In this document: positions 5,710 through 7,267 of the stretch, one piece after another
Position numbering within the stretch: the stretch's first letter is position 1
Layout of the letters: every line of letters starts with the position of its first letter
IMG/VR virus record: IMGVR_UViG_2879765931_000005
Source: a virus
Taxonomy: Duplodnaviria; Heunggongvirae; Uroviricota; Caudoviricetes
DNA: 36,219 bases
Reading direction: 5' to 3' (one strand)
The notes under the pieces: model-generated
Seen by the model: only the letters and a program-made list of their open reading frames with translations
Told to the model about the DNA's origin: nothing
Databases searched by the model: none
Made by a program: the position numbers and the translations under genes

Positions 5710-5832
5710 TCAGATCGCACCAAAATTCGGCTCTACCTCGCGTGGTGGTAAAGTTTTATTGCAGGTAAATAGATCCCGGCTGACAATCGGTTTGCCACTA
5801 CGATTGGTATAGAACGGAAGCCCGTTTTCCAT
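5710..5832 (-). CDS. Short ORF (40 aa) overlapping the integrase start; possible excisionase or excisionase remnant
   Basis: MENGLPFYTNRSGKPIVSRDLFTCNKTLPPREVEPNFGAI; its stop overlaps the int ATG (TGATG), the usual xis-int arrangement; no homology recognised. Confidence 0.25.
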   Translation of the reverse strand: MENGLPFYTNRSGKPIVSRDLFTCNKTLPPREVEPNFGAI

Positions 5833-5870
5833 TAACCATTTTCGCTGGTGGCAGCATTACCAGGGCGGTA

Positions 5871-6293
5871 ATGAAAATGACTGAATTAACAAAAGAACAA
5901 TTAATCGAAGAAGCCAAATTAAAAATAGCGATTACGAAATGCCACCCCAATTCAGGGATGGCGCGAGTAGAGGGCGAGTTATTCAAAATTGCACGGGCAT
6001 CGCTGGAAGCAGAGCCGATAGCGTGGCGATATCGCTACGTGAAAAAAGGTGTTATGGACTCTCAGGGGGAGTTGTGGGTTGGTGACTGGAAATATGTACC
6101 GAAAAAAGAGGATTGTAACGACAGGCCGAACTATGAAATTCAGGCCTTATTCACTGCCCCACCAGTCCCGGTTACATCAGAAGAACTGGTTAAAGCTGTG
6201 CACTTTTATGAACAATTAAAACGCGAAAATCCACCAGCATCCGGCAACCAGATTAATGGGTTAACTATGTCGGTTAAACGACCAGCCAACTGA
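5871..6293 (+). CDS. Hypothetical protein (140 aa), integrase-proximal cargo
   Basis: Intact ORF divergent from int; no motif recognised. Confidence 0.5.
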   Translation: MKMTELTKEQLIEEAKLKIAITKCHPNSGMARVEGELFKIARASLEAEPIAWRYRYVKKGVMDSQGELWVGDWKYVPKKEDCNDRPNYEIQALFTAPPVPVTSEELVKAVHFYEQLKRENPPASGNQINGLTMSVKRPAN

Positions 6294-6505
6294 AAAAGCG
6301 GAAACCTGATTATAGGTTGCCAGATAAGGCAATAAGCTACCTGGCGCGGAACGGACTGATAAGTATGGGGAATGTTTTACGATGAGTATTTAGACTAAAG
6401 AGTTTGTAACGCTATGTAAGTGATTTTTTCTGGTTTAGATATTTATATGTCCGGCCAAATTGAGGTGTGTTTAAATGTTATTGCACATTGATTGTAGGGG
6501 GAATA

Positions 6506-6685
6506 ATGAAAAACGCATTGCAGTTTTTGTTTGTTGCGTTCTGGTTGTTCGCATCATGTATGCCCATCATCTTCACAGCAAGGTATATGGAAAAAATTGA
6601 TGTTTTGATATTAATGTTTGGACATATAAATGCCCTTTTTTTAGGGGTGTTCATGGCGGTCATGTGCATTGAATACTGGCGGTAA
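6506..6685 (+). CDS. Small predicted two-helix membrane protein (59 aa)
   Basis: MKNALQFLFVAFWLFASCMPIIF...; strong SD AGGGGG 5 nt upstream of ATG; two hydrophobic segments; AT-rich context. Confidence 0.45.
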   Translation: MKNALQFLFVAFWLFASCMPIIFTARYMEKIDVLILMFGHINALFLGVFMAVMCIEYWR

Positions 6686-6944
6686 ATACAGCGAACGCTA
6701 TTGGTTTAGTTGGATATTTACTGTGCCGGACAAAAACGGTTTGCAGGGAAATCTTAGTTAAGTAGAATGACTGCGGGTGCTTGAGGCTATCTGTCTCAGG
6801 CATGAACACCAAAAGGCAGATAGAGAAAAGCCCCAGTTAACATTACGCGTCCTGCAAGACGCTTAACATTAATCTGAGGCTCAATCCATGCTGAACACAT
6901 GTAGGTTAGCCTCTTACGTGCCGAAAGGCAAGGAGAAGCAGGCT

Positions 6945-7100
6945 ATGAAGCAGCAAAAGGCGATGTTAATCGCCCTTATCGTCATCTGTTTAACCGTCAT
7001 AGTGACGGCACTGGTAACGAGGAAAGACCTCTGCGAGGTACGAATCCGAACCGGCCAGACGGAGGTCGCTGTCTTCACAGCTTACGAACCTGAGGAGTAA
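6945..7100 (+). CDS. hokD: Hok/Gef-family membrane toxin (HokD/RelF-like)
   Basis: MKQQKAMLIALIVICLTVIVTALVTRKDLCEVRIRTGQTEVAVFTAYEPEE; Hok-family fold (TM helix + conserved Cys); SD AGGAG upstream; ORF-track entry 6888..7100 includes an in-frame upstream extension. Confidence 0.8.
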   Translation: MKQQKAMLIALIVICLTVIVTALVTRKDLCEVRIRTGQTEVAVFTAYEPEE

Positions 7101-7267
7101 GAGACCCGGCGGGGGAGAAATCCCTCGCCACCGCTGATGTGTCAGGCATCCTCAACGCACCCGCACTTAACCCGCTTCGGCGGGTTTTGTTTTTTCTGGT
7201 CGTTCTGGTTTACAATCCATCCGTCAGCCTGAACAACTGGCACCTGCTGCGCCAGCAGAGAAAACAG

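Follow-up and report, generated by a model that had tools for sequence, protein, structure and literature searches.

The small-gene cluster and its prophage setting

The window analysed here (the whole stretch of 36,219 nucleotides) is part of a Shigella flexneri chromosome and carries at tRNA-Ser, next to mtfA, a lambdoid prophage that has degraded; E. coli LR-21-1 has the identical order of mtfA, tRNA-Ser and integrase. Our interest is in the segment 5711-7140, for which a preliminary description of the sequence had listed an excisionase-like ORF of 40 aa, ORFs of 140 and 59 aa and hokD; all of these elements were found where it had placed them, and they are set out with their surroundings in Table 1.

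The decay of the prophage is visible in the IS1 copy within its integrase and in fragments of IS66-family transposases in the lysis region. An ORF at 5018-5710 has residues matching the Phage integrase domains of Pfam, and S. flexneri SFBU1023 (L091), which is 99.9% identical on either side of the IS1, is without 4277-5044, the two sequences overlapping here by 8 bp, consistent with a target duplication. Two further ORFs, of 167 and 91 aa, we take to be InsB and InsA of IS1, respectively. The excisionase-like ORF matches only the C-terminal part of its profiles (31-75 of 77 positions in phrog_1266 and 25-43 of 45 in DUF4224), and an intact homologue in one relative (L005) is 67 aa long (204 nt).

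Table 1. Features of the prophage end under study, in window coordinates
Feature	Position	Strand	Basis or remark
mtfA	2876-3712	-	adjoins tRNA-Ser
tRNA-Ser (CGA)	3767..3856	+	ARAGORN and Rfam tRNA; prophage attachment site
Tyrosine integrase, split by IS1	3909..5710	-	C-terminal piece 3909-4276; N-terminal piece 5045-5710
IS1 within integrase	4277-5044		768 bp; comparison with SFBU1023
Excisionase (DUF4224) remnant, 40 aa, without N-terminal part	5710..5832	-	phrog_1266, DUF4224
Putative deletion junction	5853..5861		early-left, immunity and replication genes gone, ~9 kb
Putative frameshifted pseudogene, phrog_660 family	5871..6385	+	open part 5871/5877-6293 (140 or 138 aa)
Out-of-frame C-terminal remnant of the pseudogene	6284-6382	+	ancestral stop 6383-6385
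Low-GC cassette, 342 bp	6386..6727	+	carries 59-aa ORF
59-aa ORF	6506-6685	+	Shine-Dalgarno AGGGGG at 6496-6501, four bases before ATG
hok/sok/mok locus	~6728-7196
hok promoter, TTTGCA-17-TAGAAT	6740..6768	+	promoter scan
Predicted full-length hok mRNA	6775..7196	+
5' tac element	6775-6786	+
Sok antisense RNA	6826..6896	-	placed by homology to annotated sokW (933W); overlaps mok start codon
mok frame, 70 aa	6888-7100	+	contains hok in frame
Sok promoter	TTGCCT (6931-6926), 17 bases, TAACCT (6908-6903)	-	read from sequence
hok, 51 aa	6945-7100	+	HOK_GEF
fbi element	7150-7162	+
hok terminator	stem 7169-7186 plus T run	+	terminator scan
rem-like gene, 92 aa	7268-7546	+	phrog_1212
Conserved right flank of slot (rem-like, DUF968/YdfU, RusA, Q)	7268..9652	+
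DUF968/YdfU gene	7548-8606	+	DUF968 2e-63
RusA gene	8607-8972	+	named from RefSeq annotation of L001 and L002, gene order alike
Antiterminator Q gene	8963-9652	+	Phage_antiter_Q 4e-91

A complete hok/sok/mok locus

The hokD gene had been described as a solitary gene for a Hok-family toxin. The family assignment is borne out by its product, which matches Pfam HOK_GEF at 3e-23 (81.6 bits, against a cut-off of 22). The gene is evidently not solitary, however, since the features assembled around it make up a complete and already known hok/sok/mok type I toxin-antitoxin locus, the ancestral module of which the K-12 copy is the rearranged one. The mok frame and a sok-like antisense promoter, which the preliminary description had named as things to look for, are both present at the level of sequence; the mok frame matches phrog_251 ('MokW-like') at 7.7e-33 and aligns with the annotated mokW. 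The leader on the plus strand matches Rfam family RF01794 over 6775-6950 with 118.9 bits against a gathering score of 59, the model itself beginning at 6775, and hok transcription would start at about this position. The hexamers of the hok promoter are kept in 64 loci, with an A/G change in the -35 as the sole difference.

The predicted RNA structures have the form expected of such a locus. In the minimum free energy fold of the hok mRNA (-173 kcal/mol, z -8.1) the 5' sequence GGGUGCUUGAGG pairs with the 3' sequence CCUCAACGCACCC, bringing together 6775-6786 and 7150-7162 (the tac-fbi pairing); in a fold of the mRNA lacking its 3' end, a local hairpin forms at the 5' end instead. Variants of the fbi element across the 64 loci are exclusively C-to-T changes that preserve G-U pairs. 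In the predicted fold of the antisense strand (-31.1 kcal/mol, z -5.2) a free 5' tail is followed by a long hairpin and then by a U run. The mok frame is in frame with hok here, but is put out of frame by a 2-nt deletion in 35 of the 64 related loci. A permissive Rfam scan of 5700-7300 added only a sub-threshold isrK-like match.

A transcript from a locus of this kind may already have been seen. In S. flexneri 301 a northern blot detected cssrC, of ~340 nt, between SF2042 and SF2043 (PMC3071730). The Rfam family matched here is named 'sok antitoxin (CssrC)' and the window contains a CssrB match nearby; on the basis of that name and that neighbour, with the coordinates unmatched, the locus is probably the CssrC sRNA locus of S. 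flexneri 301. The spacing of cssrB and cssrC is ~18 kb in the published account (PMC3071730) against ~28 kb in the window, so the window strain differs from Sf301.

Relationship to other hok systems

The mechanism of hok/sok of plasmid R1 is the established paradigm of type I toxin-antitoxin action. The present module has the same parts as R1 and is predicted to follow the same RNA logic (fbi-tac closure, 3' processing, mok-coupled translation and a Sok RNA lying over the mok start), but it resides in a chromosomal prophage, whereas the R1 system is plasmid-borne. The annotated hokW/mokW/sokW of phage 933W is 93% identical in DNA sequence over 6729-7172, and the likeness to the hokW-sokW-mokW modules of 933W and Sakai prophage 5 (Sp5) extends to the promoter, the leader, the in-frame mok, the position of the antisense Sok, the fbi element and carriage by a lambdoid prophage. 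The 933W module, however, lies near the attR end, whereas ours lies upstream of rem-ydfU, and the toxin here is a HokD allele, unlike hokW of 933W and Sp5. [quoted passage not shown]

Another way to view the module is through the relB-relE-hokD (relBEF) arrangement of the K-12 Qin prophage, which has an identical Hok and the same downstream neighbours rem, ydfU and Q. The preliminary description had remarked that relB and relE are missing before hokD, and we confirm that no relB or relE ORF precedes hok in the window, where the full leader is present instead. Homology with Qin is confined to 6931-7194, and Qin, in which hok is fused behind relE, no longer has the hok promoter, the leader, the mok start or sok. 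Because K-12 has kept only 6931-7194, its arrangement is the derived form, and the window preserves the locus in the state that preceded its rearrangement to the relBE-hokD of E. coli K-12. In Qin-like loci an insertion of IS, ydfW, flxA, ydfV and relBE sequences falls between 6946 and 6931, and two intermediates (L004 and L092) show the entry point of the relBE-bearing block.

Sequence-level features, together with the homology to R1 hok/sok and to hokW-sokW of 933W and Sp5, suggest how the module would act. A stable hok mRNA would be made from the TTTGCA-17-TAGAAT promoter and be kept untranslatable by pairing of its 5' end with the 3' fbi element, until slow trimming of the 3' end freed the 5' end and made the start of mok accessible. 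Antisense Sok, which is short-lived, would cover the mok start, blocking mok translation and with it the coupled translation of hok. A halt in Sok synthesis, whether caused by DNA loss, by a shut-off of transcription, by phage attack or by induction of the prophage, would allow Hok to be made, to enter the inner membrane and to kill the cell. The module in this locked-in remnant would most likely be a selfish stabiliser, with an abortive-infection role possible. One study used the HokD peptide, whose toxicity had been characterised before, as a control and reports an enrichment of hok in prophages (bioRxiv 10.1101/2025.08.07.668861); the review text of the same paper states that chromosomal hok loci tested earlier gave no post-segregational killing, and for that reason the module here might have little or no activity.

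The 140-aa ORF is a probable remnant of a larger gene

The 140-aa ORF (5871-6293), which starts at 5877 in RefSeq relatives and is there 138 aa long, had been counted in the candidate defence or toxin hotspot. It matches phrog_660 at 6.3e-47 and retains the family core AWRYRY...ENPP, but after ENPP the alignment has an in-frame gap of 30 residues and the tail differs. A tblastn search placed the C-terminal module of the family, SQLKK...NVLR, in another reading frame, and intact alleles have a TGGT that is missing here, a 4-nt deletion between 6282 and 6283. These alignments identify the ORF as a frameshift-truncated pseudogene of a mosaic lambdoid accessory family of the Ea22 neighbourhood. 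A truncated fragment of a known early-region family is an outcome that the preliminary description had itself said would count against its proposal. An extra in-frame stop is found in the same gene at some of the loci linked to the 59-aa ORF. The gene, whose native upstream promoter region is gone, is probably non-functional, although a product that keeps the family core could have some residual activity.

Searches with the 140-aa protein were uninformative as to what the family does. Scans of Pfam, NCBIfam, PHROG and PADLOC returned only PHROGs of unknown function, and the NCBIfam ead/Ea22-like model did not match. A 76-sequence alignment of the family, run as a profile against the PDB, gave only chance matches (E at least 0.12), a second profile search in a set of 5.8 billion proteins gave only further hypothetical proteins of Escherichia, Shigella and Salmonella, and an AF2 model of low confidence (pLDDT 56.7) found nothing in the PDB below E 0.35 with Foldseek.

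A 59-aa ORF in a low-GC cassette

The 59-aa ORF had been called AT-rich and preceded by a strong Shine-Dalgarno sequence; it lies in sequence of 36-41% GC, with AGGGGG before the ATG. The limits of the cassette that carries it show at loci without the ORF, where homology breaks off at 6385 and resumes at 6728-6772, and the block 6386-6780 is almost invariant across the 64 loci. The predicted protein has two segments with mean hydropathy above 1.9, and its AF2 model consists of helices at 2-27 and 30-58 (pLDDT 76.8). When 6294-6774 was simulated with a first-order Markov model, 25% of the runs contained an ORF with an ATG start and 59 codons or more, so that length is not significant by itself, and support for the gene comes from a distant homologue. 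This protein, P0186, is likewise 59 aa long and 44% identical (E 4.8e-10), and keeps the motifs SC-PII-T, MFGH-NAL and IE-WR; the two sequences differ at 25, 18 and 30 first, second and third codon positions, the third most often, with dN 0.46, dS 1.99 and dN/dS of ~0.23. The 59-aa ORF is thus probably a real, moron-like gene, and the model suggests that it encodes a two-helix hairpin protein of the inner membrane.

GhoT is a small two-helix membrane toxin, and the 59-aa protein resembles GhoT-type toxins in size and in its predicted hairpin. It has, however, no sequence relationship to them, no GhoT/OrtT-like Pfam match at E up to 0.1 and no evident cognate antitoxin here.

An alternative, which we consider unlikely, is that the ORF arose by chance in T-rich DNA and that the 342-bp cassette is a non-coding filler or regulatory remnant. 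The simulations would allow this, as would frameshifted variants recorded at a T7 run. The polymorphisms at the 64 loci (6 nonsynonymous, 0 synonymous) point the same way, although these loci were selected by protein similarity and the test is uninformative. No family was matched in Pfam (E up to 0.1), PHROG, NCBIfam or PADLOC; the ORF is unannotated in the RefSeq loci examined and absent from the sORF table of Peng et al., and neither the peptide nor the accession of the assembly with its distant homologue turned up in the papers searched. What weighs against a chance ORF is the homologue of the same length, with its conserved motifs, low dN/dS and third-position excess, together with a Shine-Dalgarno sequence at a workable distance, a helical hairpin predicted with moderate confidence, and a density of variable sites that is lower in the ORF than in its flanks.

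If the gene is real, its position invites more specific readings. One, which we regard as improbable, is that the protein represents a new small-protein family, either tied to hok/sok as a Hok modulator or immunity factor or acting as an independent exclusion effector in a slot for defence cargo; were the tie to hok/sok true, it would explain why the gene immediately precedes hok in two lineages only 44% identical. Less likely again is the proposal that the protein is a working partner of hok/sok, whether as Hok modulator or immunity protein, as a second membrane effector, or through readthrough transcription that tunes the hok promoter. In its favour are the predicted membrane hairpin and the linkage: each of the 83 recovered loci that have the ORF, a set picked by similarity to the ORF itself, has it directly adjoining the hok leader, as do 8 of 8 ORF-bearing loci of a set recovered through YdfU; P0186 lies in an unrelated, pseudogene-rich genome with a hok remnant 55 nt downstream; and scans for terminators and inverted repeats found no terminator between the 59-aa stop codon and the hok promoter. 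However, only 4 of 56 hok-rem-ydfU loci in one census carry the ORF and 933W is without it; since most such loci do without the 59-aa protein, Hok/Sok does not need it. The linkage could also reflect a young and rarely recombined haplotype, and we know of no precedent for such a partner.

Integrase adjacency and the native position of the cluster

The preliminary description saw in the cluster an integrase-proximal hotspot for defence or toxin genes. Comparison with intact relatives gives a different account of why these genes adjoin the integrase. The match to an intact int-xis region stops at 5852 and the match to the post-replication region of two relatives (L001 and L002) begins at 5862, from which we conclude that ~9 kb has been lost between them. 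In the intact relatives int, xis and exo are consecutive and are followed by dicB, cI/cro and the replication genes, with the cluster ~9 kb from int-xis, after the replication and DUF977 genes; variable cargo between int/xis and the first core gene, which would characterise an integrase-adjacent hotspot, is not seen in them. The deletion would have taken exo, dicB, the immunity region and the replication genes with it, leaving a truncated xis fused to the ribosome-binding site that serves the first gene still present. The junction at 5853-5861 is common to S. flexneri SFBU1023, and none of 5,426 E. coli genomes searched spans it; IS1 would have entered the integrase later than the deletion.

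The integrase adjacency of the three small genes is therefore evidently a deletion artefact. Very probably, a lambdoid prophage has decayed here, and 5711-7140 is what survives at the left end of its post-replication accessory region: a pseudogene, a 59-aa cassette and a complete hok/sok/mok locus. The alternative of an integrase-adjacent defence or abortive-infection island, at which the 140-aa gene, the 59-aa gene and hokD were acquired as exclusion or toxin effectors, has in its favour that the genes do physically adjoin int/xis, that Hok is a membrane toxin, that R1 hok/sok is reported to impair T4 (as cited in PMC8621323) and that the homologous slot of related prophages holds known defence systems, but it is highly improbable and already largely refuted by the comparative maps, given that every intact relative examined has exo and early genes after int-xis and the cluster after the replication genes, that the junction truncates xis, that the 140-aa gene is frameshifted, and that none of the three proteins matches a PADLOC model. 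The result is mainly corrective: an apparent integrase-proximal toxin island is the product of a deletion in a prophage that is dead, and the toxin in it belongs to a textbook module.

The hotspot part of the earlier claim does survive, for a reason other than integrase adjacency. The slot between the DUF977 gene and hok-rem-ydfU is a true cargo hotspot, with 36 combinations of gene content (ORF clusters) in 45 loci of related prophages and lengths of 1.0-4.2 kb; the sampling of this slot covered 59 loci. Like the lambdoid post-replication accessory slot in general, of which the HEPN defence gene of Gifsy-1 provides an example (PMC13043305), it is hypervariable between conserved flanks and holds defence systems in relatives; in the window, by contrast, no occupant matches a defence model, and the phrog_660 gene is a pseudogene. 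Searches of PADLOC-DB 2.0 with the 140-aa, 59-aa, Mok/Hok and DUF968 proteins gave no match, and with the rem-like protein only a chance-level match to Cas6 (E 0.016). Since the slot is a real reservoir of defence genes, its uncharacterised occupants, including the 59-aa protein, are reasonable, if unproven, candidates for screening. In related prophages the slot holds components of the Ietas, Kiwa and RosmerTA systems (IetA at 9e-143, IetS at 8e-300, KwaB at 2e-159 and RmrA at 4e-201), and relatives also hold there a Cap4-nuclease-AAA protein and a NUDIX+HAD pair.

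A hok/sok/mok module in a defective prophage

The cluster's main feature is a hok/sok/mok module of known kind, carried by a decayed prophage. The preliminary description had recognised the Hok-family toxin but called it a solitary hokD, and had proposed looking for a mok frame and a sok-like antisense promoter. The mok frame is there, as is a candidate for the promoter, and the gene is far from solitary: it is accompanied by a leader, promoter, terminator and antisense Sok, and the locus is complete.

Coordinates of features in and around the cluster
Feature	Position	Strand	Remarks
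xis-like ORF, 40 aa	5710-5832	-	C-terminal part only: phrog_1266 31-75 of 77; DUF4224 25-43 of 45
Deletion junction	5853-5861		nine bases
140-aa ORF	5871-6293	+	phrog_660, 6e-47
59-aa ORF	6506-6685	+	AGGGGG four bases 5' of ATG; surroundings 36-41% GC
Hok/Gef ORF	6945-7100	+	inside 70-aa mok frame 6888-7100; Pfam HOK_GEF 3e-23
3' neighbours of Hok/Gef ORF			in order: rem-like gene, DUF968/YdfU, RusA (name from RefSeq annotation of relatives), antiterminator Q

The hok promoter (TTTGCA-17-TAGAAT) ends seven bases 5' of 6775 and the terminator lies at 7169-7186. In the predicted fold of the 422-nt transcript (-173 kcal/mol, z -8.1) the first 12 bases pair with 7150-7162, forming the fbi-tac closure that hok mRNAs typically show, and removal of the 3' end allows the 5' end to refold locally. 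On the opposite strand, a predicted promoter (TTGCCT-17-TAACCT) is followed by a putative RNA of ~71 nt that overlaps the mok start codon and whose predicted fold (z -5.2) consists of an unpaired 5' tail, a long hairpin and a U run. Over its whole length, the region 6729-7172 is 93% identical to hokW/mokW/sokW of phage 933W, whose annotated sokW maps onto 6826-6896; hokW-sokW is a working type I toxin-antitoxin system (PMC8621323). Both promoters are preserved across a set of 64 related loci, in which the fbi element varies solely by C-to-T substitutions compatible with G-U pairing. Two mok configurations coexist: mok shares the hok frame in the window and in 933W, but in 35 of the 64 loci that frame is lost through a 2-nt deletion 3' of the mok ATG. 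Within the module, these loci vary most at the Sok 5' tail and mok start (6888-6900).

With 118.9 bits against a gathering score of 59, positions 6775-6950 (+) match the Rfam model 'sok antitoxin (CssrC)'. This is the hok-sense strand, so what the model detects is the leader of the hok mRNA; its name can invite a wrong strand assignment, as the true Sok is antisense, at about 6896-6826. In S. flexneri 301, northern blotting revealed a ~340-nt cssrC transcript (PMC3071730); the cssrB-cssrC spacing there is unlike that of the window, and it is the Rfam family name that makes CssrC a putative identification here. Two further RNA matches, to the CssrB sRNA at full length (230 bits) and to the IS009 family (127 bits), lie at the window's far end (35037-35216 and 35973-36176). 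The hok 3' UTR and terminator (7109-7190, +) give a sub-threshold match to isrK, a Salmonella prophage sRNA (27.2 bits, gathering score 50). The near-C-terminal tyrosine codon of Hok (7080-7087, FTAYEPEE) is TAC in a TACG context, and A-to-I editing to cysteine has been described at the corresponding site in hokC/D/E mRNAs (bioRxiv 10.1101/2025.08.07.668861).

K-12 HokD is identical to the window's Hok protein, yet Qin shares only 6931-7194 with the window. In the Qin-like prophages L004 (7001-11123) and L092, the 59-aa cassette and hok leader are kept up to 6946, followed by an IS, ydfW, flxA, ydfV and relBE, after which homology resumes at 6931. By this layout the window holds the unrearranged module, relBE-hokD being the derived state. 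The 16-bp overlap (6931-6946) is the entry point of the relBE-bearing block into the hok locus, creating relBE-hokD.

Proximity to the integrase

The hotspot had been proposed on the strength of an integrase-adjacent position, but in intact relatives the 140-aa homologue sits after the replication genes, and the proximity is a deletion artefact. Intact int-xis homology, from 1,096 E. coli genomes, ends at 5852; in those regions the excisionase is whole (67 aa), and immediately next to it come a 2.5-kb exonuclease gene and dicB. From 5862 the homology is to lambdoid prophages that are intact, as well as to an induced phage (L001, 99.7%; L002; L007), where exo, dicB, ydfABC, cI/cro, ydaT, replication genes, DUF977, DUF4406 and an ead/Ea22-like gene precede the 140-aa homologue. 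Therefore, about 9 kb is missing, as estimated from locus L005 plus L001. None of 5,426 E. coli genomes spans the junction, which is common to Shigella flexneri SFBU1023 (L091). Going by lambdoid gene organisation, the deletion would also have taken the native early promoters upstream of the 140-aa gene.

The prophage is defective and lies in S. flexneri, with mtfA, tRNA-Asn and tRNA-Ser (tRNAs by ARAGORN) as upstream neighbours. The integrase adjoining tRNA-Ser is interrupted by a 768-bp insertion (4277-5044), whose ORFs we take to be IS1 InsA and InsB. SFBU1023 lacks it while showing 99.9% identity to either side; the IS1 insertion is thus younger than the xis-side deletion. IS66-family transposase fragments and more IS-like ORF pairs break the late region. 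Four tRNA genes cluster just 3' of the Q antiterminator (9851-10160), as in L001; ARAGORN calls them Met(CAT), Lys, Thr and Gly, and the homologous CAT tRNA is Ile in RefSeq.

The 140-aa ORF and the variable slot

The 140-aa ORF, a protein of unknown fold in the preliminary description, is a truncated fragment and, judged from its sequence, a pseudogene; truncation was among the outcomes which that description had named as counting against its proposal. Four nucleotides (TGGT) are missing between 6282 and 6283, which leaves the remaining C-terminal module (SQLKK...NVLR) in another frame, running to the ancestral stop at 6383-6385, and some relatives with the same allele carry an extra in-frame stop. 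The function-unknown phrog_660 family, with several thousand matches in Escherichia, Shigella and Salmonella, is mosaic (variable N-terminus, conserved core AWRYRYVKKG...ENPP, alternative C-termini), and the window copy lacks 30 residues found between two NPP motifs in longer members. Neither PDB sequence search nor AlphaFold2 (pLDDT 56.7) nor Foldseek yielded a usable result for this protein.

Accessory genes after the replication genes are frequent in lambdoid prophages (2026 paper, PMC13043305). We compared the slot between DUF977 and hok/rem (homologous to window 5862-6727) in 59 loci with YdfU at least 91% identical to that of the window. The 45 evaluable loci held 36 gene-content combinations spanning 1.0-4.2 kb. 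Defence-type cargo (loci L169, L143, L153, L118, L128, L096, L102 and L103) comprised IetA (9e-143) with IetS (8e-300), RmrA (4e-201), KwaB (2e-159), an Aga-type REase domain protein (1e-20), a 932-aa protein with Cap4-nuclease, AAA and SEC-C domains, and a NUDIX (PDC-S07) and HAD pair. The window's own occupants matched no PADLOC defence model. All the ORFs of the preliminary description are present and its hotspot survives in part, for a different reason than that given: through a variable slot carrying known defence proteins in relatives, not through the integrase.

A small membrane protein linked to hok

The sole open lead from the cluster is the 59-aa membrane protein. In loci without its ORF, homology is lost at 6385 and returns at 6728-6772, defining a 342-bp low-GC cassette (6386-6727) that is nearly invariant in 64 loci. 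The 83 loci recovered with the ORF all have it directly joined to the hok leader; of 56 hok-rem-ydfU loci only 4 carry it, and it is absent from 933W. We consider it probable, with fair assurance, that the ORF is a genuine gene for a small membrane protein, one that is linked to hok although hok does not need it. Hydropathy gives two hydrophobic segments and AlphaFold2 models a helical hairpin (pLDDT 76.8). Several observations speak against a gene: the protein has no family match in Pfam, PHROG, NCBIfam or PADLOC and its ORF is unannotated by RefSeq in the loci examined; the ORF's length is unremarkable (matched in 25% of simulations), and all six of its polymorphisms are nonsynonymous. In favour of a gene, searching 1.84 billion representatives exhaustively with HMMER returned a homologue, P0186, also of 59 aa (44% identity, E 4.8e-10; NG86 dN 0.46, dS 1.99), and both proteins keep SC-PII-T, MFGH-NAL and IE-WR. 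This divergent homologue adjoins an integrase fragment in the pseudogene-rich genome GCA_013422975.1 (L088 829-1126; L090 8001-8323), with a hok remnant (VTKKDLHQVRI*GGQMEVDIY) 55 nt past it. That genome is its sole source, and the L090 copy is itself frameshifted. In the window, the start codon of the ORF falls within a weak AU-rich inverted repeat (6502-6535; 13-nt arms, 77% complementary).
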